From Flavobacteriales bacterium (lineage in GTDB: Bacteria > Bacteroidota > Bacteroidia > Flavobacteriales_F > PHOS-HE28): a stretch of 64,000 bases of DNA. A program made the translations under genes and the position numbers. The notes below the pieces were generated by a model. The model was not told the DNA's origin, searched no databases, and saw only the letters and a list, made by a program, of their open reading frames with translations. The stretch is from assembly GCA_019638085.1 (NCBI GenBank), contig JAHBUL010000001.1, positions 127,630 to 191,629 of the forward strand. The letters are read 5' to 3'. Positions 13,645 through 38,617 of this stretch are shown here, in pieces (the first letter of the stretch is position 1; each line of letters begins with the position of its first letter).

Positions 13645-13651
13645 TCGGAAA

Positions 13652-19143: not shown

Positions 19144-19144
19144 T

Positions 19145-19402: not shown

Positions 19403-19427
19403 AACCACAGAAAAGTATCCGATCACC

Positions 19428-20803: not shown

Positions 20804-21408
20804 GTACCAGGCCATTGCTTCTTGTATTTCTGCGCGCTCCCGTGCTGGGGAAAGTAAAAACGCGCTTGGCCGCCACCATGGGGAAGGAAAGGGCGCTGGA
20901 GATCTACAAGCGATTACTTCAGCACACCATTGAACAAGGCGCGGCCTTGGACGTGGACCGTCAGGCGTGGTACGCTGATGAAATTGCCGACCCGGAACCT
21001 TGTGCCGAACTGGGCTACTCGGTGTATGTGCAAGCAGGCAGGGACCTCGGCGATCGTATGAAATGCGCGTTCGGATCAGGTTTCTCCGCCGGTCACGGTC
21101 CCATCATCATTATCGGTACGGACCTCCCCCAGCTGAGCGCCGCTCTGCTTCGCGAAGCCTATATGGCGCTGGAAACCCATGATGCGGTGATCGGTCCCGC
21201 CAACGACGGTGGCTACTACCTATTGGGCTTACGAGAGCCATGTGAGGAGGTCTTCAGCGGGAAGGCTTGGAGTTCGGACAGTGTATATGCACAGACCATT
21301 GAAGACCTGCGTCAGCTAGGTCGCACCTACCATACGCTTCCGACATTGATCGACATTGACACGGCGGAGGACCTCAAAAGCGTTGAAATTCCGGGAGTGG
21401 CTCGCTGA
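20800..21408 (+). CDS. TIGR04282-like (DUF2064) nucleotidyl/glycosyl-transferase-like protein associated with ArsS clusters
   Basis: N-terminus STRPLLLVFLRAPVLGKVKTRL typical of DUF2064; ATGA overlap with arsS. Confidence 0.7.
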   Translation: MSTRPLLLVFLRAPVLGKVKTRLAATMGKERALEIYKRLLQHTIEQGAALDVDRQAWYADEIADPEPCAELGYSVYVQAGRDLGDRMKCAFGSGFSAGHGPIIIIGTDLPQLSAALLREAYMALETHDAVIGPANDGGYYLLGLREPCEEVFSGKAWSSDSVYAQTIEDLRQLGRTYHTLPTLIDIDTAEDLKSVEIPGVAR

Positions 21409-21544
21409 TCGCTGAATTACGCATCGCTCATCCCTCATGTCCGGAGGTGCGTTCATCCGGAATCAGCAATATGCGATGGTATCAGAATACTATCCCTTGG
21501 TGATCAGCTTCTTTGCTGCGCTTGCTACCCACTTTATTGGAGGT

Positions 21545-21586
21545 TACCTTTGTGGTCGAATCCGTACTTAGAATCAATCTAAATAA
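21545..21586 (+). promoter_or_regulatory. Candidate sufCDSE promoter (-7 box TACCTTTG) followed by a 9-5-9 palindromic operator GTACTTAGA-ATCAA-TCTAAATAA
   Basis: Seen directly; a homologous module lies upstream of sufA at 38541-38580. Confidence 0.55.
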
Positions 21587-21613
21587 GCCGATCATCGGCA
21601 GATAACGAATATC

Positions 21614-22354
21614 ATGCTACAGATCAAGGACCTCCATGCCCGCATTGAAGGCAAGGATATTTTGAAAGGCCTCAACCTGGAGGTGAACGCAGGTGAGGTA
21701 CACGCCATTATGGGACCCAACGGAAGTGGCAAAAGCACCTTGGCCAACGTATTGGCCGGGCGCGCCGAATACGAGGTGACCGGGGGAAGCGTGAAGTACT
21801 TTGGAGAGGACCTGCTGGAACTGGCCCCGGAAGAGCGGGCGTGGAAGGGCATCTTTCTCGCCTTCCAATATCCGGTGGAGATCCCCGGGGTAAGCAACAT
21901 GAATTTCCTGCGTACTGCATTGAACGAAGGGAAGAAGGCCCGGGGTGAGGCTGAGCTCAGCGGTAAGGACTTCCTCGCTTTGGTCCGCGAACGCGCCAAG
22001 CTGGTGGAGATGGATCCCGCCCTGATGAACCGCAACCTGAACGTGGGGTTCAGCGGGGGTGAAAAAAAGCGCAACGAGATCTTCCAAATGGCCATGCTGG
22101 AGCCCAGACTGGGCATCCTCGATGAGACAGATAGCGGATTGGACATCGACGCATTGCGCGTGGTTGCAAGCGGAGTGAATACCCTGCGCGCCAAGGACAA
22201 CGCCTTTATCGTGGTGACCCACTACCAGCGCTTGCTGGATCATATCATTCCGGATGTGGTCCACGTGATGGCTGATGGCAAGATCATTCGCAGTGGTCCC
22301 AAGGAGTTGGCCTTGGAGTTGGAGGAAAAAGGATACGATTGGGTGAAAGCGTGA
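21614..22354 (+). CDS. sufC: Fe-S cluster assembly ATPase SufC
   Basis: Walker A GPNGSGKST and ABC signature FSGGEKKR, SufC-like throughout. Confidence 0.9.
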   Translation: MLQIKDLHARIEGKDILKGLNLEVNAGEVHAIMGPNGSGKSTLANVLAGRAEYEVTGGSVKYFGEDLLELAPEERAWKGIFLAFQYPVEIPGVSNMNFLRTALNEGKKARGEAELSGKDFLALVRERAKLVEMDPALMNRNLNVGFSGGEKKRNEIFQMAMLEPRLGILDETDSGLDIDALRVVASGVNTLRAKDNAFIVVTHYQRLLDHIIPDVVHVMADGKIIRSGPKELALELEEKGYDWVKA

Positions 22355-22460
22355 TCGCCGATCAGCCGATGAAATACCGATGCCGCTACACAAGTTGCAC
22401 GGAACTCGTGGAACGCATCGTTACCGTCGAGGCAAGGACTCGACCCCTATAAGCATTGAG

Positions 22461-23786
22461 ATGAGCACCGATCAGATAATGGAACTTAATAAGGACGGGA
22501 GATCTCCCGACACGTTGGATATATCAGGCCCCAAGGCCAGTGTGATGGCGCTGTTGCAAGATGGCACCTGGCCCTTGGCTGCAGAAGCTTTTGCTCGGGT
22601 ACAGGAGTTGCCCATCCCCGACAGGCGGACCGAAATGTGGAAGTACACACGGGTCGCCAAGCTCTTCACCGAAACCTATGGCAAGCCCTTGGGCAATGTG
22701 ATCGTGGAACTTCCGCCGCGCATGCCTTTTCCGACCACCCGCGTGGTCTTCGTGAACGGGCATTTCCGCCCCGACCTCAGTGATGACCGGAAGACGGATA
22801 AAGGCGTTGTGATCGACAGCATCTCGCATCACCTGAGCCATGGGCCGCTAAAAGCACTTTACGGACAGATCGCACCCATTGGTGACCGATTGTTCACGGC
22901 GATGAACATGGCTTCGCCCACGGATGGCCTGTTCATCCTGGCCACCAAGGGCTCGAAGACCAGCAAGCCCATCCATGTGCTGCGCATTACCACGCCCATG
23001 AGCGATGGCCAAGCCATGTTGATCCAACCGCGGGACCTTTTCATGCTGAAGGAAGGTGCTGAGGTGGAGGTGATCGATGAGCATATCTCGATCGGGAACA
23101 CCACGTCCTCGCTGGTGAACGGCGTGCGTGAAAGTGTTGTGGGTGAGGGCGCAAACCTCACGCTGCACCTGTTGCAGAATGAACCCGATGGTCCGGCCGA
23201 TATCGGACTGGACAGCGTGAAGATCGCGGCCAAAGGGAATTTCAGCGTCGATACCACGACGCTCTACGGTTCGCTGGTGCGTAACGAATTGAACGTGGCA
23301 CTCGATGGTGCCGAGGCGCATGCCGAACTCAACGGCGTGTACCTGCTCAACGGTACAGCGCACTGCGACAACCACAGTTACATCGGGCACAACGTGCCGG
23401 ATTGCACCAGCGACGAGCTGTACAAGGGCGTAATTGCCGACAAGGCCACGGGCGTATTCAATGGCAAGGTGTACGTGAAGCAGGATGCCCAACGCACCCG
23501 TGCCTATCAACGGAACGCGAATATCCTTCAGGGTGAACATGCCCGCGTGTATTCCAAGCCCGAACTGGAGATCTACGCGGATGACGTGAAGTGCAGCCAC
23601 GGATGTACGATCGGCCGCATGGATGAAGAGGCCATCTTCTACCTCCGCTCACGTGGTGTAAGTGAGGAAGAGGCGCGCCGCATGATGTCGCATGCGTTCA
23701 TGGTGGATGTGCTGGAGCGCGTTACGAATCCGGATTGGAGAAAACACTTGGGCGATATGATCGATGCAAAGTTGGAAGAGCTATGA
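22461..23786 (+). CDS. sufD: Fe-S cluster assembly protein SufD
   Basis: SufBD-family C-terminal region; positioned between sufC and sufS. Confidence 0.85.
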   Translation: MSTDQIMELNKDGRSPDTLDISGPKASVMALLQDGTWPLAAEAFARVQELPIPDRRTEMWKYTRVAKLFTETYGKPLGNVIVELPPRMPFPTTRVVFVNGHFRPDLSDDRKTDKGVVIDSISHHLSHGPLKALYGQIAPIGDRLFTAMNMASPTDGLFILATKGSKTSKPIHVLRITTPMSDGQAMLIQPRDLFMLKEGAEVEVIDEHISIGNTTSSLVNGVRESVVGEGANLTLHLLQNEPDGPADIGLDSVKIAAKGNFSVDTTTLYGSLVRNELNVALDGAEAHAELNGVYLLNGTAHCDNHSYIGHNVPDCTSDELYKGVIADKATGVFNGKVYVKQDAQRTRAYQRNANILQGEHARVYSKPELEIYADDVKCSHGCTIGRMDEEAIFYLRSRGVSEEEARRMMSHAFMVDVLERVTNPDWRKHLGDMIDAKLEEL

Positions 23787-23877
23787 AGAGGAGAACCGCC
23801 AAGACGCAAAACACGCCAAGAATTCACGCCATCCGGTGCATTTCACGTTGCGCTTAGCGTCTTTGCGGTAAAAAACA

Positions 23878-25134
23878 ATGACGAACTCAATCTCAGCGGT
23901 AAAGCCTGCCTTCGACGTGGAGGAGATCCGTGCACAATTCCCGATATTGAAGGAACTGGTGCATGGCAAGCCGCTGGTCTATTTCGATAATGCCGCAACC
24001 AGCCAGAAGCCGCGTCGTGTGATCAAGGCCGAAAGCGCCTACTACGCCAAGATCAACGCGAACGTCCATCGCGGAGTGCATACGCTGAGCACCTTGGCCA
24101 CCGATGCACAGGAGGCCGCTCGCGAGATCATCCGCGCGCACATCAACGCGAAGCACGTACATGAGGTGATCTTCACCGCTGGTACGACGGCCAGCATGAA
24201 TCTCGCGGCAAACAGCCTCGGACAATTGTTATTGAAGCCGGGTGATGAAGTACTCATCAGTGGCATGGAACACCACGCGAACATCGTTCCCTGGCAATTG
24301 GTCTGTGAGCGATATGGCGCCACGTTGAAGGTGATCCCCATCACGGATACCGGTGAGTTGGACATAGCAGCAGCTGAACAGATGATCGACTCATCAGCTG
24401 ATCGCTTAAAGATCCTATCGCTCACCCACGTCAGCAACACGCTCGGCACGATCAATCCGGTCAAGCAGTTGATCGCTGACGCGAAAAAGCGGGGCATCGT
24501 TACGGTACTCGATGGTGCCCAAGCGGTGCCGCACATGGCCGTGGATGTACAGGATCTCGGCTGCGACCTGTACGCATTCAGCGGACACAAAATGTATGCA
24601 CCCACCGGCATCGGCGTGCTATATGGTCGCGAGGAATTGCTGGAGCAAATGCCACCTTGGCAAGGCGGCGGCGAGATGATCGACCAGGTCACCTTTGAGA
24701 AGACCACCTTCGCCAAGCTACCCTTCAAGTTCGAGGCGGGTACGCCGCACATCGCGGGCATCATCGGCTTGGGCGAGGCCTTCCGCTGGATGCAGGACTA
24801 TGACCTGGAGGCCATGGCAGCGCACGAACATGCGCTGCAGGAACATGCAACCAAGGAGCTGCTCGCCATCGAGGGCTTGCGCATCATCGGAACAGCGAAG
24901 GAGAAAGTGGGTGTGATCAGCTTCGTCATTGATGGGGTTCATCATTACGACCTAGGCACGCTGCTCGACCAGCAAGGTATCGCGGTGCGCACGGGCCACC
25001 ACTGCACACAGCCGTTGATGGACCACTTCGGTATCAGCGGGACCACGCGGGCAAGCTTCGCACCTTTCAATACGACCGCTGAAGTGGATGCCATGGTGGC
25101 GGCCACGAAGAAGGCGGTGAAGATGTTGCGATGA
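23878..25134 (+). CDS. sufS: Cysteine desulfurase SufS
   Basis: Class-V aminotransferase fold with SufS-type motifs (FSGHKMYAPTGIG; RTGHHCTQP). Confidence 0.9.
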   Translation: MTNSISAVKPAFDVEEIRAQFPILKELVHGKPLVYFDNAATSQKPRRVIKAESAYYAKINANVHRGVHTLSTLATDAQEAAREIIRAHINAKHVHEVIFTAGTTASMNLAANSLGQLLLKPGDEVLISGMEHHANIVPWQLVCERYGATLKVIPITDTGELDIAAAEQMIDSSADRLKILSLTHVSNTLGTINPVKQLIADAKKRGIVTVLDGAQAVPHMAVDVQDLGCDLYAFSGHKMYAPTGIGVLYGREELLEQMPPWQGGGEMIDQVTFEKTTFAKLPFKFEAGTPHIAGIIGLGEAFRWMQDYDLEAMAAHEHALQEHATKELLAIEGLRIIGTAKEKVGVISFVIDGVHHYDLGTLLDQQGIAVRTGHHCTQPLMDHFGISGTTRASFAPFNTTAEVDAMVAATKKAVKMLR

Positions 25135-25553
25135 ACACCTCATTGAAAGAAGCCCAACAGGAGATCGTGGACGAGTTCGCCATGCTCGGCGATTGGCAGG
25201 ACCGCTATGAGCACCTGATCGAGCTGGGGAAGGAACTGCCATTGATCGCACCCGAACTCAAGACGGATGAGAACCTTGTGCGCGGATGCCAGAGCCGGGT
25301 ATGGCTCACCGCTGAAGATCGGGGAGAAGCCATCCATTTCACTGCGGACAGTGATGCGATGATCACCAAAGGCTTAGTAGCGCTGCTGGTACGTGTGCTG
25401 AACGACCGCACGCCCGAGGAGATCATGGGCACTCCGCTCACCTTCATCGATGCCATTGGTCTGCGCGAACACCTTTCACCCAACCGCAGCAACGGCCTCG
25501 TGGCCATGCTGGACCAGATGAAGCGGTATGCGTTGGTTTATTCCTCGAAATGA
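25131..25553 (+). CDS. sufE: Cysteine desulfuration protein SufE
   Basis: SufE family with conserved Cys in RGCQSRVWL; overlaps the sufS stop. Confidence 0.85.
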   Translation: MNTSLKEAQQEIVDEFAMLGDWQDRYEHLIELGKELPLIAPELKTDENLVRGCQSRVWLTAEDRGEAIHFTADSDAMITKGLVALLVRVLNDRTPEEIMGTPLTFIDAIGLREHLSPNRSNGLVAMLDQMKRYALVYSSK

Positions 25554-25573
25554 GAGCATCGGAGATACATACT

Positions 25574-25631
25574 TGTCTTATGTCCAATGTCCCACGCTTT
25601 GCAAGCGTCATAGGACATCGGACATGAGACA
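25574..25631 (+). repeat. Nested palindrome/stem-loop in the sufE-sufT intergenic region
   Basis: 19-nt arms TGTCTTATGTCCAATGTCC / GGACATCGGACATGAGACA (17 Watson-Crick pairs, 1 G-U, 1 mismatch) enclosing the perfect inner palindrome ACGCTTTGCAAGCGT. Confidence 0.6.
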
Positions 25632-25658
25632 ATACCACCGCACCTGCGGCACATTAAA

Positions 25659-25979
25659 ATGACCAACGAAGAGAAAAAGCAATTGGAGGAGCGCGTGATC
25701 ATGATGCTCAAGACCGTCTATGACCCGGAGATCCCCGTGGACATCTACGAGCTGGGCTTGATCTACGACGTGGTGGTCCGCGATGATGCAAGCATCTACA
25801 TCAAGATGACCTTGACCAGCCCGGCTTGTCCGGTGGCAGGCACCCTGCCTGGCGAGGTGGAGGAGAAAGTGGCCCAGACCATGGGGGCAAATGGCGCCAA
25901 GGTGGACCTCACCTTCGAACCGGCTTGGGACCGCAGCATGATGAGCGAGGCAGCGATGCTGGAACTCGGGTTCATGTGA
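25659..25979 (+). CDS. sufT: SUF-system Fe-S assembly protein SufT (DUF59/MIP18 family)
   Basis: DUF59 signature (VYDPEIPVDIYELGLIY...TLTSPACP). Confidence 0.8.
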   Translation: MTNEEKKQLEERVIMMLKTVYDPEIPVDIYELGLIYDVVVRDDASIYIKMTLTSPACPVAGTLPGEVEEKVAQTMGANGAKVDLTFEPAWDRSMMSEAAMLELGFM

Positions 25980-26038
25980 TGATCGGACGCAGAGACGCAG
26001 AGAAGAATAACGAGACGCTATTACGCGATGAAGTTTCA

Positions 26039-26554
26039 ATGAGCAACGAAGGTATCATCAACAAGGTCGCGTCCAGTGGCATCATCACCTTGGACCTGGA
26101 AGAGATGTATCCCCATGGTGAGCGTGTGGTTTTCGATATAGCACCGTTGCTGTGGGAAGGGATCGCTTTGAAGGAGAAGGATTTCCGGGAGACGTTGAAA
26201 GCCCATGAATGGTCGCAGTACCAAGGTAAGTTCGTAGCAGTGCACTGCTCGGTGGATGCGATCATCCCCACCTGGGCATACATGCTGGTTGCTACCTATC
26301 TGCAACCTCATGCGGCCTTTGTAACACAAGGTGATGCAGAGCAGATGGAGCGAGCTGTGTTCACCCGCTTTGTGCAACAATTGGATGTGGAACCCTACCG
26401 CGGTGCGCGCATCGTGGTAAAAGGCTGTAGCAAAATGGCTGTGCCCTTGAGTGCTTATGTGGAACTGTCGGCCAAGCTGTTGCCGGAAGTGAAAAGCCTG
26501 ATGTTCGGGGAGCCATGCAGCACCGTGCCGCTGTACAAGGCCCCGAAAGCGTAG
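26039..26554 (+). CDS. DUF2480-family protein
   Basis: Typical Bacteroidota neighbour of sufT; start at internal Met 26039. Confidence 0.6.
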   Translation: MSNEGIINKVASSGIITLDLEEMYPHGERVVFDIAPLLWEGIALKEKDFRETLKAHEWSQYQGKFVAVHCSVDAIIPTWAYMLVATYLQPHAAFVTQGDAEQMERAVFTRFVQQLDVEPYRGARIVVKGCSKMAVPLSAYVELSAKLLPEVKSLMFGEPCSTVPLYKAPKA

Positions 26555-26569
26555 CCTAACTTCGGCATC

Positions 26570-28687
26570 ATGCGTTCGGTTTTTTTTCTTTTGACTTTGC
26601 TGTTGCTCGCTCCGGTATTTCCGCAGGTGGGAACACCTTCTGATAGCCTGAACATTCCCGATAGTGAGAATGGTTGGTACCTCAGCCCGCACGGCACCAT
26701 CCGCATCCTGGTGATCTTCGCCGAGATCGACTACGACAAGAACCCCAAGGACGACCCGCAGCCGAAAGCCACCGCCAATTGGCCAAAGGGTGAGCTACCC
26801 ATATGGAAGGATGACCTCTTCGACCCATTCCCTTCGGAACAACCTAAGGCGCAGGTGACGCGGTACTATCACGAAATGAGCCTGGGGCAGTTCACCGTGC
26901 TGGGCGATTACGTGGATCAGCTGATGATCATTCGCGAGAGTGAACAGCGCAACCTGAGGAATTGGAGCGGCATGGCCTGGGAGGAGGCCAACAAAATGGG
27001 TATGCTGCAAACTGCACATAACCTGTCCATTGAGGATTTCGATATGTGGACGGATGGAGGGCGACCGGGTATGCCCAAGCTGAACGTTCCTGATGATCCG
27101 CACAGTTACGATCATGTGATGGTGATCCTGCGCAACAGCAGCCTTACCCACGGGCAAGGCAGCACCGATGCAGGAAGTGCGGGCCTGCTGTTCGGTTATC
27201 CCAGCGACACCCAAAGTCGCTTCGGTGCAATGAACAGCCTTCCTTTTGCGATCCTGAAGCACGAGTTCAACCACCTTCTATTGGGCGGGAACAACTTCCA
27301 TAGCGGTGGAGGTAATGCCCCGACCTTCACCGGATATTTCATTCCTGTACAAGGCGGCTGGAGCTTGATGGGCGCGGCGAACAGCTCGTTGCTCACCGCC
27401 AGTGCCTGGGATCGCGACCGCTTGGGATGGAGACCGGAGGGAAGCCGCTTTCACATTCGTGCAAGTGATCGGAATGACGCAGAGGTGAATGGTGATCTGG
27501 ATCCATTGGCTGGGGATACCGGGATCTATGTTATACGTGATTTCATCACCAGTGGCGATGCTATTCGCATTCGTATGCCTTTCCTTGAAGCGGATGAATA
27601 CCCCCAATGGCTGTGGCTGGAGAACCACCAGACCAAGAGCAATAACGGTTGCCAAATGGATGTGTTCCATTATGAAGAGATGGACTGTGTGAAGCCTGCG
27701 GTGCCCGGCATCTATGCGCAGATGCAGGTGGACAAGGAAAAGAAGACCGGGAGTGGGATCTATGGAGGGCATGCCGATTACCTGCGGCCCGTATTGGCGA
27801 ACGGGAACTTCGATCAGCGCTTGCGCGGCGATACCATCACCTTCAAATGCTTGTGGCCGGGGCCGACCGAACCCTATGTGGTAAAGCGTGCTTGGGCCAA
27901 TCCGTTGAGCGGAACACAGGATCAGGAATTCCCACTGTTCGATAAGAACGGCGATGGCAAGCTTACCCGGAAGGAAGCGAACGCTCCACGTGTGGGCATC
28001 CATGATGGAAAGATGGTGGATGATGCCGCGTACTTGGGTAGTTCGCGTCAGGTGTTCACCCCACAAGGCAATAGGCGTATTGGCATGGGTACCAACCCCT
28101 CCAGTGCGAACATGCTAAGCTTGGCGACCAACATGAGCATGGAGCAGAACCGGGGGAAGAAGCCGGACAACCGCACCGTGTATCTGAACGGCATCAGCGT
28201 GGAGCTGCTGGAACAGCGCAGCGATGGCGCTATTGTACTCCACATCCGGAGTGGCGATACGCGCCTGACGGAAGATGTGCGCTGGTGTGCCGACAGCATC
28301 GTGCTACCCGGACTGAAGGGGTACAAGGGCACCGCGCTCACCTTGGCAACGAGGAAAACGTTGAAGGTGGATCGCTCCGGTACGCCCACGCGTATGGCGC
28401 AACAAGGTGAGAAGGAAGACGGAACGTTCTGGTTCAGTCCGCCCACGCAATTCACCGTGGCAGCGGATGCACGGATGGTGCTGGAACCCAAAGCGAAGCT
28501 TCAGTTACTGAACAACTCAGTGATGCACCTGATGCCGGGTTCCGAGCTGGTGTTGGGCCGAAAAGCAAAGCTGGATGTCCAGGCCGGTTCACAATTGGTG
28601 CTGCATGGCGATGCATCCCTACAGGCAAAGCCGTGTGTTCTTCGCAAGCTGCGGAAGAATGGACGGATCGTGAACGTTCCCGAGTGA
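26570..28687 (+). CDS. Secreted putative zinc metalloprotease (HExxH) of unassigned family
   Basis: Signal peptide MRSVFFLLTLLLLAPVFPQ; HEFNH zinc-binding motif; no T9SS CTD seen. Confidence 0.55.
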   Translation: MRSVFFLLTLLLLAPVFPQVGTPSDSLNIPDSENGWYLSPHGTIRILVIFAEIDYDKNPKDDPQPKATANWPKGELPIWKDDLFDPFPSEQPKAQVTRYYHEMSLGQFTVLGDYVDQLMIIRESEQRNLRNWSGMAWEEANKMGMLQTAHNLSIEDFDMWTDGGRPGMPKLNVPDDPHSYDHVMVILRNSSLTHGQGSTDAGSAGLLFGYPSDTQSRFGAMNSLPFAILKHEFNHLLLGGNNFHSGGGNAPTFTGYFIPVQGGWSLMGAANSSLLTASAWDRDRLGWRPEGSRFHIRASDRNDAEVNGDLDPLAGDTGIYVIRDFITSGDAIRIRMPFLEADEYPQWLWLENHQTKSNNGCQMDVFHYEEMDCVKPAVPGIYAQMQVDKEKKTGSGIYGGHADYLRPVLANGNFDQRLRGDTITFKCLWPGPTEPYVVKRAWANPLSGTQDQEFPLFDKNGDGKLTRKEANAPRVGIHDGKMVDDAAYLGSSRQVFTPQGNRRIGMGTNPSSANMLSLATNMSMEQNRGKKPDNRTVYLNGISVELLEQRSDGAIVLHIRSGDTRLTEDVRWCADSIVLPGLKGYKGTALTLATRKTLKVDRSGTPTRMAQQGEKEDGTFWFSPPTQFTVAADARMVLEPKAKLQLLNNSVMHLMPGSELVLGRKAKLDVQAGSQLVLHGDASLQAKPCVLRKLRKNGRIVNVPE

Positions 28688-28696
28688 GCCTGTTGA

Positions 28697-30001
28697 TCAG
28701 GTTCCGATGGCCATCGGCTTCCTGAACCCGCGTGCCTCCCGGATGATGAACGCTCCCAGTACAACGTATTCGATCGCTAGCCACCAGTACGGCTGTGCAT
28801 ACGGCACACTGCCATAGGTGAGGTAGGTGGGCACGATCAGTAGTGACCAGAGGACAGGCCATCGCCAACGGGTCAGCGGCGCTAAAGCCACCAACGGCAG
28901 GATGTACCACGGATGCACCACTTGCGAGCAGCTCAGGTAGATGGCCAGCAGCCACAACATCGCCTCCGGCCATGGCGTACGCCTGGTTCTCCACAGCCAA
29001 AGCGAATACGCACCTAAGCCGATCAATGCGATCGCGCCCAGCAGCCCGGTGCCTTTCACCAGGGCATCACCAAACAGCCGGCGCAGCCCTTCGAACAGAA
29101 CGCCGTTGAATTCGAGATAGCTCACAAAGAGCTTAAGGATGCTGCCAAGGTGCGCGAAGAACCCGGGAGTGTAGAGCGGGATCCAAGAGGCCACGAAGAG
29201 GATGAGCGTGATCGCGAAAAAGCGGACCGAGCGCCGCCAGCCGAGCTGCGAGGGGATCCATGCGAGTAGGATCAAGGGCCACAACTTGGCGGCTGCGGCG
29301 ATGGCGATGAGCACCGCTGCCGCATCGTAGCGCTTCTGGCGGAACAGGTGGATCGCCCAAAGGCAAGGCGCGATCATCAGCACTTCGCTGTGCAGGTTCA
29401 CGTTGAATTCCATCAGCACCAACGGATTCAGTGCGTAGAGGCCCACCTTCCGCACGCGATCGGGTGCATCCTTCAAGAGCACGCCCAGCGCGGTGATCGT
29501 GGCCAGGTCGAAGACGATGGACACGAAGCGCAGCACGAGCGTGGAGTACCATATATCACCTTGGCCCAAGCCTGCCGCGATCGCGTATACCAACTGCGCG
29601 ACCGGCGGGTACACGGAATGGAAGTGCGGTGAATTCAGCTTCGCATACAGTGCGGGCGTGAAGACCTGCGGCATTGTTTTCACCAGTTCATCCGGCGTGA
29701 ACGCAAATGGGGAGATCCCGTGGATCGAGCAGAGGCCGTCCCAGATGTAGCGGTAGTGATCGTCCGTCCAGGTGATCGGCGCGAGGAAGAGCAGTACCCG
29801 CAGCACGACCGCCACGACCATGAGCTGCTTCCATGTCAGTTGCGATCGGCGATCGACCCACAGATAGGTGAAGAAGGCCGTGCCGAAACCGAGCAAGAGT
29901 TGCAGGCTTTGCGAGCGTGATGGACCATAGCCCAGAAAGAGCACGGCAGCAGCAAGCAAAATGATCGGGACGAGGCGTTGAGCGATGCGCGTGCTCATCA
30001 T
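28697..30001 (-). CDS. GT-C fold membrane glycosyltransferase (DUF2029/GT87-like mannosyltransferase family)
   Basis: Polytopic membrane protein resembling DUF2029; start at internal Met 30001, overlapping the stop of the upstream GT2 gene. Confidence 0.65.
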   Translation of the reverse strand: MMSTRIAQRLVPIILLAAAVLFLGYGPSRSQSLQLLLGFGTAFFTYLWVDRRSQLTWKQLMVVAVVLRVLLFLAPITWTDDHYRYIWDGLCSIHGISPFAFTPDELVKTMPQVFTPALYAKLNSPHFHSVYPPVAQLVYAIAAGLGQGDIWYSTLVLRFVSIVFDLATITALGVLLKDAPDRVRKVGLYALNPLVLMEFNVNLHSEVLMIAPCLWAIHLFRQKRYDAAAVLIAIAAAAKLWPLILLAWIPSQLGWRRSVRFFAITLILFVASWIPLYTPGFFAHLGSILKLFVSYLEFNGVLFEGLRRLFGDALVKGTGLLGAIALIGLGAYSLWLWRTRRTPWPEAMLWLLAIYLSCSQVVHPWYILPLVALAPLTRWRWPVLWSLLIVPTYLTYGSVPYAQPYWWLAIEYVVLGAFIIREARGFRKPMAIGT

Positions 30002-31470
30002 GTGGTAGTGCGCAGCGAATGCACCACGGAGTACCAGCCCACCAGCCCGAAGCCGAGCGCCAACATGATGTGGTAGGGCAAGAGCCCGAGGTCGCCGGTG
30101 CGGAAGCCGATCACGATGCCCCATACCGCATAAGCCGCGATCGCGCCTTCCAACACAGTGATCGGACTGATCACGCTCTTCCAATAGCCATCACGGCGGA
30201 TCGCCTTGTCGCCTTTGTCGCCACCGAGCTTCGGGGTCCGCAAGAACGGAGTGCGACGTCCTGCGTAGCCCTCCAGTACAGCGATGGCATTGTGCAGCGA
30301 AAGGCCCATGCTTACGGAAAGGAACAACGGGAAGGTCCACAGGAACCGCAGGGTGCCGCGCCATTCGGGCATGTCCTTGCGGTGGGCGATCCAATAGAAC
30401 ACCACCAGCACCAGCAAGGCGAACGTGAAGACGATCGCAATGTTGAACAGCATGCGCAGTTCGGGATGGTCCTGTTTCACCAGCAGCACGGGTACGCTAA
30501 GCAGGGCCGTGCCGAGGATGCACACGAAAACGGTGCTGTTCATCAAGTGGAAGAGCGCGTGGACCTTCGTGGAGAATGACAACGCGGGATCGCGGAGCAC
30601 GCTCGGTAGGTTTTTCACCACGCACTCCGCCGCGCCCTTGTTCCAGCGGTATTGCTGCGTCTTCAGCGCGTTCATGGCAGCGAGCAGTTCGGCGGGCGAC
30701 ACCACGTTCTCCAAGTAGTGGAACTGCCAACCTTTCAACTGTGCGCGGTAGCTCAGGTCGAGGTCCTCGGTGAGCGTATCGGGTCGCCAACCGCCCGCAT
30801 CCGTGATGCATGCCTTGCGGCAAACACCCGCCGTGCCGTTGAAATTGATGAAGCGGCCCATGGTGTTCCGGCCCACCTGCTCTACGGAGAAGTGCGCGTC
30901 CAGCCCGAAGGCCTGCAGGCGCGTGAGCAGGTTGCTGTCGCGGTTGATGTGGCCCCAGCAGGTCTGCACCATGCCGATCCCCGGATCGTTGAACCACGGG
31001 ACCACCGCTTGGAGCAGGTCCGTTGGTGGAAGGAAATCGGCATCGAAAATGGCGATCAGTTCACCCTTCGCGCGTTCCGTTCCGTAGGCCAACGCACCGG
31101 CCTTGAAGCCCGTGCGGTCCGGCCTGCGGATCAGCGTTATGTCAATGCCCTGCGCCTGCCAATGCGCAACGCGTTCCGCGGCCAACCGGGTGGTCTCGTC
31201 CGTGCTATCGTCCAGCACCTGCACCTCGAAGCGGTCGTGCGGCCAATCCATTTTCGCCACTTGGTCGATCAGCCGTTCCACCACGTGGCGCTCGTTGTAC
31301 AGGGGCAATTGCACCGTTACCAATGGCCGCTTGCCGAAGACGGGCGGGGGCATCATCCGCACGTGCTTTTCCTTGTGCAGGTAGGCCCAGGTGAGCTGCA
31401 ACTGTACCACGCTGAAGAGCAGGATGAAGCTCAACAACAGGCCGTAAACGATGAGCAGTGCGATGGCCAT
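29998..31470 (-). CDS. Processive family-2 glycosyltransferase (cellulose/chitin-synthase-like, membrane-embedded)
   Basis: DDSTDET and downstream D motifs, QQYRW (QxxRW) motif, N-terminal TM plus C-terminal TM bundle; start at internal Met 31470. Confidence 0.75.
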   Translation of the reverse strand: MAIALLIVYGLLLSFILLFSVVQLQLTWAYLHKEKHVRMMPPPVFGKRPLVTVQLPLYNERHVVERLIDQVAKMDWPHDRFEVQVLDDSTDETTRLAAERVAHWQAQGIDITLIRRPDRTGFKAGALAYGTERAKGELIAIFDADFLPPTDLLQAVVPWFNDPGIGMVQTCWGHINRDSNLLTRLQAFGLDAHFSVEQVGRNTMGRFINFNGTAGVCRKACITDAGGWRPDTLTEDLDLSYRAQLKGWQFHYLENVVSPAELLAAMNALKTQQYRWNKGAAECVVKNLPSVLRDPALSFSTKVHALFHLMNSTVFVCILGTALLSVPVLLVKQDHPELRMLFNIAIVFTFALLVLVVFYWIAHRKDMPEWRGTLRFLWTFPLFLSVSMGLSLHNAIAVLEGYAGRRTPFLRTPKLGGDKGDKAIRRDGYWKSVISPITVLEGAIAAYAVWGIVIGFRTGDLGLLPYHIMLALGFGLVGWYSVVHSLRTTT

Positions 31471-32162
31471 CAGCGGTATTTGATGATGGTGGTGATGATC
31501 TTCCAGCCCGCCAGCACCGAGCCCTTCACCGTGCCGCTGATCTTCGAAAAGCCGATCCGCTTGCGGTAATCCACGGGCACTTCCGTGATCCGCAGGCGCT
31601 GTTTCGCGGCCTTCAGTTGCATCTCCACCGTCCACCCGAAGGTACGATCGCGCATGCCCATGGCCTGAAGCGCTTCCCAACGCACGGCACTGAACGGGCC
31701 GAGATCAGTGTATTTCACGCCGTAGAAAAGCTTGAGCATTCGTGTTGCCAACCAGTTGCCGAAGATCTGCTGGGGCATCATGCTGCCCGCATCACGATGG
31801 CCCAACGCACGCGAACCGATCACGAAGTCGGCATGTCCCTCGACGATCGGCGTGACCACTTCCGTCATCTGCTCCGGGTGGTCGCTGTTGTCCGCGTCGA
31901 TGAAAACCACGATGTCCGGCGGCGGCTCGTGCGTGGCTACCTGCGCAATGCCCTTCAAGCAGGCATTGCCGTAGCCGCGCTCCGGCTGGTCCACCACGAT
32001 GGCGCCCGCAGCCCGGGCCATCTCGCTGGTCTTGTCGCTGCTGGCGTTGTTCACCACCACGATATGGCGCACCAATCCTTTAGGGATGTCGCGCACCACC
32101 AGGCCCACGGCCTCCTGCTCATTGAAAGCGGGGATGATGACGTCGATGATCGGTGCTGGCAT
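31470..32162 (-). CDS. Family-2 glycosyltransferase, dolichyl/polyprenyl-phosphate sugar synthase-like
   Basis: N-terminus IIPAFNEQEAV and DAD-type motif FIDADNSD; stop overlaps the start of the next gene. Confidence 0.75.
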   Translation of the reverse strand: MPAPIIDVIIPAFNEQEAVGLVVRDIPKGLVRHIVVVNNASSDKTSEMARAAGAIVVDQPERGYGNACLKGIAQVATHEPPPDIVVFIDADNSDHPEQMTEVVTPIVEGHADFVIGSRALGHRDAGSMMPQQIFGNWLATRMLKLFYGVKYTDLGPFSAVRWEALQAMGMRDRTFGWTVEMQLKAAKQRLRITEVPVDYRKRIGFSKISGTVKGSVLAGWKIITTIIKYR

Positions 32163-32303
32163 GGCCCTCTGGCGGGGTTGCGAAGAAACGGCTTCGCACG
32201 CCGATGTGGTTTACATACGGTGTAGCGGTGCCTCGTGGTTGGTCGTGATCCGAGGAGGAACTGACAGTTTCGAAACAAAGGCAACGGTGAAGCCCGCAAA
32301 TGC

Positions 32304-33878
32304 CTAACGCAACGTTGCGCCAGTCTTCCCGATGGCGATTGGATCGCTGCTGAAACGCCCAGGGACCTTTCCGTTCTCCAACTTCAGTACTCCCCTTGGG
32401 CACGCCGCTGCGCAGATGCCGCAACCCACGCAGCTGGAGCGCACGATGTTCTCGCCGCGTTGCGCGTAGCTGCGCACGTCGATGCCCATTTCGCAGTAGG
32501 TGCTGCAGTTGCCGCAGCTGATGCACTGCCCGCCGTTGGTGGTGATGCGGAAGCGCGAGAAGAAGCGCTGTTGCATGCCGAGGATCGCCGCCATGGGGCA
32601 ACCGAAGCGACACCACACGCGGCTGCCCATCAGCGGATAGAAGCCCACGCCTATCACGCCGTTGAAGATGGAGCCGATCGCGAAGCCGTAGGTTTTCCGC
32701 AGCGGATAGCTCTGCACGAAGAAGATGTCGCCGCGACCCGTGAAGTAGGCCCACGCCGTGAAACCGATGAGCAGCACCGCGACGCCGATGCCGACGAAGC
32801 GGGCGGTCCGGTCGATCTCCTTCACCATGCCGGGCCGGATCAGCAGTACGGCGGCCACCGCACCGAGGACGATCACGATGATGCCGAGCAACATGCCGCG
32901 CGTCACCCAAAAGCCTTTCGCACTGTCGCTGCCGAGGTAGCTGTAGATCAGCGCTGCCGTCATCAACACCGCGAAGACGAGCACCGCATGGATCACCCAG
33001 CGCTCGATCTTCCAGGCCTTCACGCTCTTGTCGCTGAGCTGCCGGAAGGGATCGCCCGCCGTTTCCGCCAAGCCGCCGCAACCGCAGACCCACGAGCAGT
33101 ACCAGCGCTTGCCGTAGAAGTAGGTGAGGATAGGCGAAATGATGAAGATCATCGCCACGCCGAAGAGCAGCATGAACAGGCCGAAACCGCCCGCGTCGAT
33201 CATGCCCTTCACGCTCCAATCATCGAAGAAGTAGTAGTTGAGCGGCCACATGTTCTTGAAGTCGTTGTACGGCAAACTGAGCCGCGCCAATACTTCCGGG
33301 ATCAAGAATGCGAAGCCGAGCTGGAAGAACATCACCGAGCTGGTGCGCACCACTTCGTACTTGTTGTGCCGGTATTTCAAAATGAATTTGATGCCCATTG
33401 AGAGGATGGCCACCGTGTAGAGCGTGCCGTAGACGAACCACTGCGAGGCCGGGTTGCCACTTAGAAGCCTGCTGAGCGGATCGAAGAGCGCGATGATGCC
33501 GGTGTTCGCTTTGCCATCGCCAGTGAGGCCGAGGTATTGCGGAAAGAAATAAAGCACCACGTAGAATCCCGTGAGCAGGATGCCGACCACCCACGCCACC
33601 GCGCCGCGCGAGGTGAGGCTATTGTGCCAAACGCCGTCGTTCTTGATGCCCGCCGGCCGATGCGCATACGAGCGCCAAGCATAGCCCACCGCGCCAACGC
33701 CGATGGCGAGCAGGGCTGAAGTGAGCCAAAGGCCCGCATGCGGAATTTGCTCCATCGGCAGGCTCATCAGCAAGCCGAGAACGCCCAAGGCCGCCAACGC
33801 CAGCGCGCCTTTTTGCAAGCCGTCCAAGCTCCCGCTGTGCGGTGCCGCGATCGAGAGGCTGTGGACCGAACGGCTCAT
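32304..33878 (-). CDS. Polytopic 4Fe-4S polyferredoxin of the NapH/CcoG(FixG) family
   Basis: Membrane Cys motifs CSWVCGCGG and CRFGCP plus a C-terminal 2x[4Fe-4S] ferredoxin domain (CISCGNCSTYC...CVGCGICAAACP). Confidence 0.75.
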   Translation of the reverse strand: MSRSVHSLSIAAPHSGSLDGLQKGALALAALGVLGLLMSLPMEQIPHAGLWLTSALLAIGVGAVGYAWRSYAHRPAGIKNDGVWHNSLTSRGAVAWVVGILLTGFYVVLYFFPQYLGLTGDGKANTGIIALFDPLSRLLSGNPASQWFVYGTLYTVAILSMGIKFILKYRHNKYEVVRTSSVMFFQLGFAFLIPEVLARLSLPYNDFKNMWPLNYYFFDDWSVKGMIDAGGFGLFMLLFGVAMIFIISPILTYFYGKRWYCSWVCGCGGLAETAGDPFRQLSDKSVKAWKIERWVIHAVLVFAVLMTAALIYSYLGSDSAKGFWVTRGMLLGIIVIVLGAVAAVLLIRPGMVKEIDRTARFVGIGVAVLLIGFTAWAYFTGRGDIFFVQSYPLRKTYGFAIGSIFNGVIGVGFYPLMGSRVWCRFGCPMAAILGMQQRFFSRFRITTNGGQCISCGNCSTYCEMGIDVRSYAQRGENIVRSSCVGCGICAAACPRGVLKLENGKVPGRFSSDPIAIGKTGATLR

Positions 33879-35176
33879 GCGATAACGGTATTTCCTTGTT
33901 TGAATGAAGCACGGATGGCGGGCTCGGAACGGTGGTGGAGCTCGGGGTCGAATGCGGCTTCGTGCAAGTGTTCCACCACGTGATCCACGGTCGTTCTTTC
34001 GCGCAGCCAGCGATCGAACACTTCATGCCGCAAACGGAAGCCGAAGCTGTTCACGCCGTGCAGCACGCGGTTTTTCGCGTTCCACACCAAGTGCAGCGCG
34101 GACTTTCCGTTGGGATGTTCCCAGTAATGTCCGGCCTCGCCGTCCTGCAATTCGTTGCGCACCCAGCCGTAGGTCTGGTATTCAATGTCGAAGAACTTCG
34201 CGCTGTTGAACCAGATGCCGGGATCGTACGCGGTGCGATCGCCAGTGAGCGTGCGGGCCACGGTCTCTCCCATCAATCGACCGGTGTACCACACCTGCTC
34301 GATGTTCTTCCGCTGCGGATCGGGATGTTCGTGGAATTCCACGCAGTCGCCGATCGCGAAGACGTCCGCTGCGCTGGTCTCCAAGTAGGTGTTCACCAGC
34401 ACGCCCTTTTTCGTTTTGATGCCCGGACTTTCCTTCAGCCACTTGATGTTCGGGTGTACGCCGACCGCAAGCCCGACAAAGCCGCAATCGATGGTGTCGC
34501 CGCCCTTCGTTCGCACCGCTTGCACGCGTCCGTCAGCACCCGCGAGCACTTCTTCCAATTCCGTGTTGAAATGCAGGTCCACGCCATGCTCGCGCATGTG
34601 CCGCGTGATCAGGTCCGCTTCCTGCTTTGGAAGAATGCCGCCCCAGAAACTGTCCTCGCGCACGAAGAAGGTCACTTCAATGTTCCGCGTGCGCAGCATC
34701 TCCGCCATCTCCACGCCGATCAATCCGCCGCCCACGATCACCGCGCGCGAAATGCCCTTCGTGTTGGCTTCCATCGCTTCCACGTCCTGCAAGCTGTACA
34801 GGCCCTGCACGCCGGGCAGGTCCTGCCCGGGCCAGCCGAACATATTGCTCTCGCTGCCGGTGGCGATGATGAGTTTGTCGTAGTCGACCGCACTGCCATT
34901 GCTCAACATCACGGATTTTTTTTCGGTGTCGATCCGCGCCACCTTGGCGTGCTTCAACGCGATGCGGTTCTTTGCCCAGAAATGGTCCTCGTAGGGCTTG
35001 ATGTCGCGATAGCGCATGTGGCCCATGTACAGGTACATCAGCGCGGTGCGGCTGAAGAAATGCTCGCTTTCCTTGCCGATCACGGTGATCCGCGCATCGC
35101 TCCGTTTGCGGATGTGCCGCGCCGCCGTGATGCCGCTGATGCCGTTGCCGATGATGACGATGCGATCGTTGCTCAT
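33875..35176 (-). CDS. FAD/NAD(P)-dependent pyridine-nucleotide-disulfide-family oxidoreductase
   Basis: N-terminal IVIIGNGISG Rossmann motif and a second NAD(P) motif VIVGGGLIG; ATGA overlap with the polyferredoxin gene. Confidence 0.8.
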   Translation of the reverse strand: MSNDRIVIIGNGISGITAARHIRKRSDARITVIGKESEHFFSRTALMYLYMGHMRYRDIKPYEDHFWAKNRIALKHAKVARIDTEKKSVMLSNGSAVDYDKLIIATGSESNMFGWPGQDLPGVQGLYSLQDVEAMEANTKGISRAVIVGGGLIGVEMAEMLRTRNIEVTFFVREDSFWGGILPKQEADLITRHMREHGVDLHFNTELEEVLAGADGRVQAVRTKGGDTIDCGFVGLAVGVHPNIKWLKESPGIKTKKGVLVNTYLETSAADVFAIGDCVEFHEHPDPQRKNIEQVWYTGRLMGETVARTLTGDRTAYDPGIWFNSAKFFDIEYQTYGWVRNELQDGEAGHYWEHPNGKSALHLVWNAKNRVLHGVNSFGFRLRHEVFDRWLRERTTVDHVVEHLHEAAFDPELHHRSEPAIRASFKQGNTVIA

Positions 35177-35227
35177 GTGCGAAATTTGTGCGATGCGCGT
35201 GCCTCATTGGCTGTCGCGATCATCACA

Positions 35228-35563
35228 ATGTACCTGACAACACGGCTAGCCTTCTCCCTGTTCTTAGGACTTGCCACTCTGCATCCTGGGAAATTGCAGG
35301 CGCAGAAGATCGATGGGGTTTGCTTCAGCGCTCCACCGCGAGAGGACTGCAACAGCAACATTGCGCATGTGGAAGCCATCGGCGCCAACTGGCTCGGAGG
35401 ATACAAGAGCGGCCACGAAGAGCGACAAGGGAATGGATTTTCACCGCAAGGGAAGGCAGCCTTGAACGTGCTGCGCAAGGAGAACAAGGGGGAGTACGGA
35501 GAGCACAGAAAGTATGAATCAACGCAACCGTGCTATCTTCGGGAGAACCGGATGGGATCCTGA
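35228..35563 (+). CDS. Candidate small secreted hypothetical protein (about 111 aa)
   Basis: 3' portion of long antisense ORF 33932..35563 that lies beyond the oxidoreductase gene; Met at 35228 with signal-like MYLTTRLAFSLFLGLATL and a charged C-terminal half. Confidence 0.3.
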   Translation: MYLTTRLAFSLFLGLATLHPGKLQAQKIDGVCFSAPPREDCNSNIAHVEAIGANWLGGYKSGHEERQGNGFSPQGKAALNVLRKENKGEYGEHRKYESTQPCYLRENRMGS

Positions 35564-35606
35564 TGTCAGGAAAGCTTGACGATCACGACGTCTTCGGTGG
35601 AACACC

Positions 35607-36218
35607 ATGCGTAACTGGACCACGACCATTCCTCTTTTGCTTGCCACGTTTTGTGGCACGGTGGAAGCGTATGCGCAAGAACATCCTTTTCTTTCCGAGT
35701 ATTCGCTGAACGAACTTTCCAATGGCGTGCTGGTCACTTGGACCATCCATGGTGGAAGCACATGCGACGGACAAGAAGTGCAGCGCTCCACGGACAGCCT
35801 GAACTTTACGACGGTGCATGTGATCCAAGGGATCTGCGGAAGCCCGGAAAGTTCCACGCCCTACATCTGGTTCGACCCTACACCGCCCGAACTCAGCAAG
35901 GTCTACTACAAATTGAAATTGGGTTTTGATGGATACAGCTCGGTGAAATCCGTGTTCTTCGCCCAGCTCAACGAAAGTGAACAGCGCTTCTTCCCCAATC
36001 CTGTGACGGATGTGGCGACCTTGGTGGTGGATGCAAAGCCGAACACCCCGGTGGACCTGCTTGTTTTCGATGGGTCCGGGAAACTGGTGGTTAGCTTGAA
36101 CGGACTGAACGGGCCGACCTTGGATGTGCCCGTGCGTAAGCTACCGGCCGGGGTGTACAGTTATCGTGCGAGCACGCCGACAGGCCGCTCATTCAGTGGT
36201 CGCTTCGTGAAAAACTGA
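35607..36218 (+). CDS. Small T9SS-secreted protein (type-A CTD)
   Basis: Signal peptide plus C-terminal FFPNPVTDVATLVV...GVYSY CTD. Confidence 0.7.
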   Translation: MRNWTTTIPLLLATFCGTVEAYAQEHPFLSEYSLNELSNGVLVTWTIHGGSTCDGQEVQRSTDSLNFTTVHVIQGICGSPESSTPYIWFDPTPPELSKVYYKLKLGFDGYSSVKSVFFAQLNESEQRFFPNPVTDVATLVVDAKPNTPVDLLVFDGSGKLVVSLNGLNGPTLDVPVRKLPAGVYSYRASTPTGRSFSGRFVKN

Positions 36219-36230
36219 AACGCACAAAAA

Positions 36231-36263
36231 AAGCAGGCACTTGCGATCCGCAAACGCCTGCTT
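36231..36263. terminator. Bidirectional rho-independent terminator between convergent genes
   Basis: AAAAAAA-AGCAGGC...(nested TTGCG-ATC-CGCAA)...GCCTGCT-TTT. Confidence 0.6.
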
Positions 36264-36278
36264 TCAAGGATGTTCGGT

Positions 36279-36602
36279 TCAGACTTCCTTCACCTCGGCG
36301 ATCGGCGCATTCTTCTTCACGCTCTCGATGCCCCCATCGCGTGAGCTTTCGGTGGTATACACTTGGCTGGAGCCGATCACTTGCTTGTTGGCGGCGAGCA
36401 GGTTGAACGAGGCACCAGCATCTGTGGTCTTGCATTCGTAGTTGGCATCGTCAGACGCGTTGGCCTTCACGCTCTCGATTCCGTTCGTGGCGGATGCCTT
36501 GGAGGTGTAGCCTTGGCTGGCCAAGATGATCTCGCCGTTCCCGGCCTTCAAGCGAAAACGGAATTGATCGGCTTTATCGGTATACAATTCAAATGTTGCC
36601 AT
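36279..36602 (-). CDS. DUF1508 (YegP-like) tandem-domain protein
   Basis: Two YegP repeats (FELYTDKADQFRFRLKAGNGEII; ECKTTDAGASFNLLAANKQVI). Confidence 0.8.
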   Translation of the reverse strand: MATFELYTDKADQFRFRLKAGNGEIILASQGYTSKASATNGIESVKANASDDANYECKTTDAGASFNLLAANKQVIGSSQVYTTESSRDGGIESVKKNAPIAEVKEV

Positions 36603-36656
36603 GGTCTTCAGAGGTTTTAGTGATGAACAGAAGGTTCGCAGCTAAGGTAAGATTCT

Positions 36657-36685
36657 GTGAGAAAAGCCTAACGCATTTAGGCCTC
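36657..36685 (-). terminator. Candidate rho-independent terminator just after sufB
   Basis: On the minus strand: GGCCTAA-ATGCG-TTAGGC followed by TTTTCTC, starting about 25 nt past the sufB stop. Confidence 0.45.
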
Positions 36686-36707
36686 AACCCGCAACGGATC
36701 GTGGTCC

Positions 36708-38156: not shown

Positions 38157-38204
38157 ATGATCGCTGATTTTTTACTGTAAGGAGAATGGATTCTTCCGGA
38201 AGGA

Positions 38205-38531
38205 CTAAATGCTGAAGCTTTCACCACAGCCACAGGTGCGGCTGGCATTGGGGTTGACGAACTGGAAACCCTTCCCGTTAAGGCCGCCACTGAATTCCAA
38301 TGTGGTACCCAACAAGTAGAGGAGGCTTTTCTTGTCCACCACCACCTTCACGCCATTGTCCTCGAACACTTTGTCGCCATCCTGCATCTTGTCGTCAAAG
38401 ACCAGATCATAGGAGAGGCCACTGCATCCACCGCCCTTAACGCCCACACGCACAAAGTGCTGTGGCCCCCGGCCTTCCATGCCGAGAAGTTTGGAGAATT
38501 CTTCTTTTGCGTTGTTACTGACCTTGATCAT
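38205..38531 (-). CDS. sufA: A-type Fe-S cluster carrier (SufA/IscA/ErpA, HesB family)
   Basis: HesB family with CSG...CGCGESF cysteine ligands. Confidence 0.85.
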   Translation of the reverse strand: MIKVSNNAKEEFSKLLGMEGRGPQHFVRVGVKGGGCSGLSYDLVFDDKMQDGDKVFEDNGVKVVVDKKSLLYLLGTTLEFSGGLNGKGFQFVNPNASRTCGCGESFSI

Positions 38532-38540
38532 GCTGGTTCG

Positions 38541-38580
38541 TTATTTAGAATCTGTCTAAATAATCTCGGCCACAAAGATA
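38541..38580 (-). promoter_or_regulatory. Candidate sufAB promoter (-7 box TATCTTTG) followed by a perfect 9-5-9 palindromic operator TTATTTAGA-CAGAT-TCTAAATAA
   Basis: Seen directly; paralogous to the module upstream of sufC. Confidence 0.55.
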
Positions 38581-38617
38581 CAAAGCAATAAAGCCGCGAA
38601 CAATGGTCGCGTATTCC

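Follow-up and report, generated by a model that had tools for sequence, protein, structure and literature searches.

A 64,000-nucleotide (nt) stretch of DNA from a Flavobacteriales bacterium of the PHOS-HE28 lineage (GenBank assembly GCA_019638085.1, contig JAHBUL010000001.1, positions 127,630 to 191,629 of the forward strand; hereafter "the window") carries a suf operon that is divided into two convergent halves. The array is cut after sufB: sufB and an adjoining "sufA" lie on the minus strand at 36708-38531, and the genes from sufC to that of a 705-amino-acid protein (p705) lie on the plus strand at 21614-28687. The comparisons below make it likely that a single, ancestral, in-place inversion of this ~7-kb sufC-p705 module split the operon, leaving a detached half that bears the same promoter/operator as the other and is probably co-regulated with it. 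An original prediction, made from the letters of the window, had also invoked a single inversion, of about 15 kb (21409-36707) and of recent date.

Gene content, ancestral order and age of the split

SufB, SufC and SufD assemble into a single scaffold, to which SufS and SufE supply sulfur, and in E. coli the genes are ordered sufABCDSE. In the window, SufB (36708-38156, minus strand) scores 902 bits with its NCBIfam equivalog model NF008773 (cutoff 717) and also matches Pfam SUFBD_core. The neighboring "sufA" product (38205-38531, minus strand) matches the TIGR00049 subfamily of Fe-S carriers (115 against a cutoff of 59), scores under the SufA, IscA and ErpA equivalog cutoffs, and is best described as an A-type carrier. 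On the plus strand follow SufC (21614-22354; TIGR01978, 361 against 213; Pfam ABC_tran), SufD (22380-23786; NCBIfam equivalog, 235 against 222; SUFBD_core), SufS (23878-25134; subfamily TIGR01979, 568 against 475), SufE (25131-25553; Pfam SufE 1.6e-47, under the NCBIfam equivalog cutoffs), a SufT-like DUF59 protein (25659-25979) and a DUF2480 protein (~26039-26554), the last two identified in the same Pfam and NCBIfam scan. This gene set is a standard SUF system, and the domain matches bear out the identities and strands that had been read from the open reading frames (ORFs), with sufA and sufB leftward and sufC to DUF2480 rightward.

The module ends with p705 (26570-28687, plus strand), which has no match in Pfam or NCBIfam, a signal-peptide-like N-terminus and 349 homologs at E<=1e-30. 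The gene lies 3' of DUF2480, closing the suf cluster, in most members of this Flavobacteriales group and in all of its outgroups. In one member (L103; comparison loci carry L numbers) a single gene intervenes between DUF2480 and p705, and in four others (L094, L092, L095, L107) p705 is detached from the suf genes.

The polarity of the change was read from 80 Bacteroidota loci, obtained by scanning a genome collection with SufB and locating sufC by tblastn. In 73 of them sufC stands 3' of sufB and shares its strand. Sequence of at least 4.5 kb 3' of sufB contains no sufC in three loci (Runella L031, Cytophagales L049 and Spirosoma L077). The two closest genomes in the collection, L011 and L012 (SufB identity 84-85%), are both collinear: L011 carries sufA-sufB-sufC-sufD-sufS-sufE-sufT-DUF2480-p705 on one strand, and L012 carries sufA-sufB-sufC on one strand up to the contig end inside sufC. 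Further relatives were reached through p705 homologs. L104 has a contiguous one-strand array, L105 a contiguous array with a small gene of the 23S-rRNA-intervening-sequence family (IVP) between sufB and sufC, and L106 a co-directional array with four reverse-strand genes inserted at that same place. The contiguous sufBCDSE arrangement, for which a comparison with related Bacteroidota had been suggested, is found in L011, L104 and L105. Since the nearest outgroup metagenome-assembled genomes (MAGs) have it, and since sufC follows sufB in 73 of the 80 loci, the contiguous array from sufA to p705 is the ancestral state. The literature searched yielded no paper on DUF2480, and none on how suf genes are ordered or inverted in Bacteroidota.

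The split arrangement is shared by seven relatives, at 75-88% concatenated protein identity to the window; the outgroups stand at 68-69%. For p705, identity to the window is 84% in L099 and L114, 77% in L100, 73-75% in L101 and L091, 72% in L093, 71% in L103 and 65% in L102. In neighbor-joining trees of the Suf and p705 proteins, concatenated, the split clade is monophyletic, with a bootstrap of 1.0 for the window and six relatives (1946 columns, L102 left out) and of 0.89 when L102 is included (1130 columns). Within it the window pairs with L099 (1.0), joined next by L100 (0.99), and the co-directional L104, L105, L106, L011 and L012 are placed outside. Same-species variation was surveyed in 23 contigs with identical SufB and 23 with identical SufC, overlapping sets of up to 46 assembled contig records, and every arrangement shown has a single orientation. 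Because the split is common to a clade at 75-88% identity, the inversion is old and fixed. These results do not support the recent date first proposed, since the split is common to all close relatives and contiguous operons occur only outside the clade; nor do they support the suggestion that the segment might still flip.

The inverted segment and its junctions

The extent of the inverted segment is given by the flank that once adjoined p705. A purF-like glutamine amidotransferase gene (5886-7904, plus strand; weak NCBIfam purF match) is the ancestral neighbor of the p705 end. Its homologs (79-88% identity) are convergent to p705, adjoining it or one gene away, in L011, L104, L105, L106 and L094. 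The flank in L104, L106 and L094 reads p705, one extra gene, the oppositely directed purF-like gene, CHU_C in the direction of p705, and Amidohydro_2 and 3-HAO in the direction of the purF-like gene. L105, in which the purF-like gene adjoins p705, shares the purF-like and CHU_C part, and in L011 the purF-like gene adjoins p705 at the end of the locus. Homologs of the whole flank occur in the window at 53-85% identity (purF-like 5886-7904, CHU_C 1919-6019, Amidohydro_2 910-1926, 3-HAO 291-905). There, as in L101, the flank (genes 75-88% identical) keeps its internal order and stands on the sufC side, with the strand of sufB and sufA unchanged relative to it. In the orientation of the window, the ancestor therefore carried a rightward purF-like gene followed by p705 to sufC, sufB and sufA, all leftward; the split clade carries the rightward purF-like gene, variable genes, sufC to p705 rightward, further variable genes, and then sufB and sufA leftward. 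The sufC-p705 module is flipped against both the left flank and sufBA in the window, L099, L100 and L101, and the sufBA half keeps the orientation to the left flank that it has in the outgroups. A relocation of sufAB in place of a flip of sufC-p705 was considered and rejected, because it would put sufA beside the purF-like gene, and the purF-like flank stands on the sufC side.

The smallest version of the arrangement is found in L101, which consists of the purF-like gene, an oppositely directed Aminotran_5 gene, sufC to p705, and then, after only 33 bp, the convergent sufB and sufA, followed by rpoN directed like sufC. Between p705 and sufB, L091 carries solely DUF1508, and L099 solely Por and DUF1508. 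These spacers imply that what flipped was the ~7.1-kb sufC-p705 module and not a 15-kb segment. The original prediction therefore stands in part: an inversion of a contiguous operon and a breakpoint in the sufB-sufC spacer agree with the comparisons, and the 15-kb size and the second breakpoint are not supported, given the purF-like flank of the outgroups. Likewise, 21409-21613 and 36603-36707, which had been taken for the original junctions, conflict with the outgroup flanks and with the spacers of L101, L091 and L099.

The 15-kb reading, in which a fairly recent inversion of 21409-36707 carried the genes from GT87 to DUF1508 along, with DUF1508 formerly beside DUF2064, is improbable, even though its geometry works. 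Flipping 21409-36707 does restore one-strand contiguity, the complete layout of the window recurs in L100, and a GT87 gene follows p705 in L102 too. Yet the outgroups L011, L104, L105 and L106 have no GT87-to-DUF1508 genes after p705 and no DUF2064 beside the operon, and carry the purF-like flank instead; L101, L091, L099 and L114 are without most or all of the 8-kb block; and the split is common to a clade whose proteins are 75-88% identical to those of the window. The segment 18476-20816, beside DUF2064, varies among strains with identical SufC, and the strains that lack it keep part of DUF2064. The genes that follow p705 in L104 (456 amino acids) and L094 (588) were examined as possible diverged GT87, which would have favored a larger inverted unit, and show no similarity to it. 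The appearance of a 15-kb inversion is due to later cargo, which in the window amounts to 13.5 kb at the left junction and 7.9 kb at the right one.

Both junctions have gained and lost unrelated genes since the split. The left one (7905-21408, mixed strands) includes Aminotran_5 (15011-16084, minus strand), an Abhydrolase-OsmC gene (17115-18410, minus strand), a sigma-70 gene (18529-19143), and the plus-strand genes for CMD, radical-SAM DUF3641 and DUF2064 (19104-21408). Solely Aminotran_5 separates sufC in L101 from the purF-like gene, which lies two genes upstream on the same strand. Aminotran_5 adjoins sufC in L093, L101 and L103; in L099, L100, L114 and the window a few other genes stand between the two. 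The Abhydrolase-OsmC gene, the sigma70-CMD-radical-SAM-DUF2064 set and egtB/egtD-like genes were added in subsets of relatives, L099 and L114 being without the sigma70-to-DUF2064 set. Even within the species, the segment 18476-20816 (sigma70, an 85-amino-acid product, CMD and radical-SAM DUF3641), just 5' of DUF2064, is absent from L108, L109 and L113, which carry a 100% identical SufC and in which a diverged piece of DUF2064 is left (86% identity over 20816-21012).

The right junction (28697-36602, mixed strands) holds, on the minus strand unless stated and by Pfam, GT87 (28697-30001), two GT2 genes (29998-31470 and 31470-32162), a polyferredoxin (32304-33878), Pyr_redox_2 (33875-35176), a protein with a type IX secretion system (T9SS) tail (35607-36218, plus strand) and DUF1508 (36279-36602). 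Besides the empty L101 and the short versions of L091 and L099, the full set is found in L100, and L114 resembles L099 as far as its contig reaches. The G+C content of the block is 0.60-0.62, against 0.55-0.57 in the suf genes. Between the first GT2 and the polyferredoxin gene, strains L004 and L010 contain an extra 2.8-kb insert (RraB, an ABC ATPase and DUF5687).

Some further observations concern these same genes. Left of sufC, at 12133-16084, the window has an ergothioneine-like cluster composed of DinB_2+FGE-sulfatase (EgtB-like), Methyltransf_33 (EgtD-like), NTP_transf_9 and a class-V aminotransferase with a weak EgtE match, the last of which is conserved as upstream neighbor to sufC across much of the split clade. 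The site of the RraB insert corresponds to ~32249-32306 in the window (L004:15854-18403). Pyr_redox_2 is called as two ORFs (90 and 344 amino acids) in L001, L005, L007 and L008, all with identical SufB, which may reflect either a frameshift or faulty assembly of these contigs.

A repeat search of 20500-39000 gave no inverted-repeat pair around the junctions and only chance-level imperfect matches of 17-28 nt elsewhere, and no mobile-element remnants were found at the junctions; the original prediction had likewise reported neither. No recombinase or integrase domain turned up in a scan of 20 ORFs between 19104 and 41699, and Rfam returned no known RNA family for 20-40 kb. The cargo boundaries of the window and L099 are too diverged for a nucleotide alignment to be informative. 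Directly 3' of sufB, on the minus strand at 36657-36685, lies a hairpin followed by TTTTCTC, which folds at -12.7 kcal/mol (RNAfold). The terminator that had been proposed here is a candidate only: the hairpin and its TTTTCTC tract exist, but a terminator scan did not report it and the spacer is unconserved in L099, L100, L091 and L101.

Promoter/operator copies before sufC and sufA

Each half of the divided operon is preceded by the same putative regulatory arrangement, a Bacteroidota-type TAnnTTTG -7 box followed after 13-17 nt by the palindrome TTAGA-N5-TCTAAATAA. Upstream of sufC (21521-21599, plus strand) these are a -33 TTG at 21522-21524, the -7 box TACCTTTG at 21545-21552, the operator TTAGAATCAATCTAA at 21568-21582 and a small leader hairpin at 21587-21599. 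The original suf promoter/operator lies 5' of sufA (38545-38580, minus strand), with its -7 box TATCTTTG at 38580-38573 and its operator TTAGACAGATTCTAA at 38559-38545. The Bacteroidota promoter consensus consists of -33 and -7 elements. As expected of such a sigma-A promoter, the TTG and TAnnTTTG elements 5' of sufC are about 20 nt apart; the palindrome that accompanies them would cover the transcription start. A scan for sigma-70-type promoters is inapplicable to Bacteroidota, and its result was at or below shuffle expectation.

The pattern TTAGA-N5-TCTAA has exactly two sites in the 64 kb (21568-21582 and 38545-38559), each 3' of a TAnnTTTG box, which upholds the earlier statement that sufC owns a copy of the promoter-operator. 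The chance expectation is ~0.31 matches per window, and 5 of 100 shuffles reach two. In the window and seven split-clade relatives the core upstream of sufC reads CTTG, ~20 nt, TACCTTTG, 16-17 nt and TTAGAATCAATC(T/C)AAATAAGC. The -7 box is invariant in all eight genomes, and the operator is kept with one substitution, a C in the right half-site of L100 only. A small GC hairpin usually lies 3' of the core, and the intergenic sequence around it has diverged. An equivalent promoter/operator precedes sufA in the split genomes L099 and L101 and in L011, L012 and L105; L104 has a TCC variant of it. By contrast, no operator is present in or before the 12-54-bp sufB-sufC spacer of the contiguous outgroups.

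Beyond the clade, the palindrome precedes the leading suf gene at 10 further Bacteroidota loci and the interrupted sufC in L106, and it lies directly 5' of a detached sufS in L061. Across all fetched loci its matches stand almost solely before suf units, with two relaxed-pattern exceptions elsewhere (L015 and L080). Given this distribution, TTAGA-N5-TCTAA looks like a widely conserved, apparently uncharacterised putative suf operator of Bacteroidota, and to our knowledge it is unlike the E. coli Fur, OxyR and IscR sites. The same operator stands before sufC and before sufA, and the two halves are therefore probably repressed and derepressed together.

Two observations may be added on this motif. 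Among the loci with the TTAGA-N5-TCTAA pattern are the window, L015, L021, L026, L039, L042, L046, L048, L061, L066, L068, L080 and L106. In addition, the sufC and sufA promoter regions of the window (21533-21560 and 38565-38592) share words outside the core motifs, CTTTATTG and TTTGTGG(C/T)CGA, which are also found in L099 and have no counterpart in other clade members; gene conversion between the inverted promoter copies, or chance, may account for them.

The matching regulatory regions speak for another origin of the split, in which the whole operon was duplicated in inverted orientation and joined at the p705 end, after which sufAB was retained in one copy and sufC-p705 in the other by reciprocal loss. 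This would explain the same promoter/operator on both halves, which are alike in -7 box, spacing and operator architecture; all intermediates would be viable if SUF is indispensable here, as it may be; and the final gene order and flanks would be identical to those observed. Such a history nevertheless has little probability. It takes at least three events against one, and tblastn finds no relic of sufA or sufB 5' of sufC and none of sufC to p705 3' of sufB in any member. The gap between p705 and sufB is just 33 bp in L101, and detached suf units gained the operator with no inversion in L106 and L061.

Probable course of the split and comparison with known systems

In the inversion that is preferred here, one breakpoint would lie in the short sufB-sufC spacer and the other just 3' of p705, beside the purF-like gene. 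The outcome would be a convergent pair, sufC to p705 facing sufB and sufA, that was subsequently fixed. Right after a simple inversion sufC would be co-directional with the purF-like gene, and read-through from that gene could have bridged the gap. The two convergent units would most likely be governed by one common repressor, and SufB output would thereby stay matched to that of SufC and SufD. The new junctions would later have taken up and lost unrelated genes.

Several points weigh against this account. A simple inversion leaves the gain of a promoter/operator by sufC unexplained. The flank 5' of sufA is not shared, being an M13 peptidase gene in L104, an AIRS-domain gene in L105 and rpoN in the split clade, and therefore one flank only anchors the inversion. 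The convergent adjacency of p705 and GT87 occurs in the window, L100 and the basal L102, so that GT87 might be part of the early arrangement and have been lost in L099, L101 and L091. Finally, the basal L102, L094 and the group of L092, L095 and L107 show further rearrangements, with p705 or sufAB elsewhere; more than one event therefore took place in the clade.

These rearrangements tend to fall at the same places. Relative to a holB-PSP1-gldH-PBP flank, the sufC-p705 module has opposite orientations in L102 and L103, and L107, L095 and L092 have p705 and DUF1508 at that flank without suf genes, which shows the module boundaries to be rearrangement breakpoints repeatedly.

As a separate observation, IVP genes (four-helix-bundle, PF05635, Avd-like) are found inside suf spacers in many Bacteroidota, between sufB and sufC in L105, L012, L070, L029 and L021, between sufA and sufB in L021, L086 and L088, and between sufS and sufE in L042. 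Those of L105 (4537-5060) and L012 (11447-12121) are flanked by long inverted repeats of the GTTACG/GTTGCG type. In these two, the nearest contiguous outgroups, the IVP gene sits exactly in the sufB-sufC spacer, the place of the inversion breakpoint. No link between IVP insertions and the inversion could be made, and the only possible remnants at the window's breakpoints, 10-13-nt word matches 3' of sufB (E 0.1-0.4), are absent in sister taxa and were treated as chance. A broader idea is that the sufB-sufC spacer is a recurrent weak point hit by IVP cassettes, one of which maybe seeded the inversion, and that each detached suf fragment gains a new operator copy. This is speculative and rather unlikely, and if true it would imply an uncharacterised suf repressor in Bacteroidota and a regulon that is actively maintained, possibly via gene conversion between promoter copies. 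Invertible promoters and shufflons are a known feature of Bacteroidota, but a programmed segment whose site-specific recombinase toggles suf expression is extremely improbable, given boundaries free of inverted repeats, no recombinase domain in the ORFs scanned between 19 and 42 kb, a single orientation in all species contigs shown and in all relatives, and an outward-independent promoter on each half.

Compared with the canonical suf operon of E. coli and of the Bacteroidota L011 and L104, the window has the same core genes, the same internal order and a regulated promoter before the first gene. It differs in that the array breaks off after sufB, with sufC-p705 placed on the opposite strand behind a promoter/operator of its own; the cluster further includes a SufT-like DUF59 protein, DUF2480 and the family-specific, putatively secreted 705-amino-acid protein. 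The missing sufC downstream of sufB is shared with Runella L031, Spirosoma L077 and Cytophagales L049, which belong to a different bacterial order and would represent separate events. As in Bacteroides-type invertible switches, a segment is inverted relative to relatives, but inverted repeats, a recombinase and orientation polymorphism are all missing, which places the window outside that class.

The closest parallel is operon splitting with retention of the regulon. In their "life-cycle of operons," Price, Arkin and Alm are said to have described in 2006 how operons broken by rearrangement or insertion give pieces that keep or regain the regulatory site. In the window, too, an ancestral operon is broken and the downstream piece has a new copy of the ancestral operator, and the same combination is seen independently in L106, by insertion between sufB and sufC, and in L061, by detachment of sufS. 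No report of a suf split in this Flavobacteriales clade was found in the literature searched. For the annotation of Flavobacteriales MAGs from wastewater and soil, the case means that sufB and sufCD are split, not missing. It also illustrates how genes come and go at junctions newly made by rearrangement, and it flags a conserved, apparently uncharacterised candidate suf operator in Bacteroidota, with no new kind of system. A fixed evolutionary inversion that splits an operon and leaves the operator on both pieces is a known kind of event. Relative to operon splitting in general, the window adds a specific and dated case from an uncultured Flavobacteriales clade, with co-regulation suggested by the shared operator sequence: a clean example of a presumably essential multi-subunit operon that was broken by inversion and apparently survives because its detached half bears the same promoter/operator.

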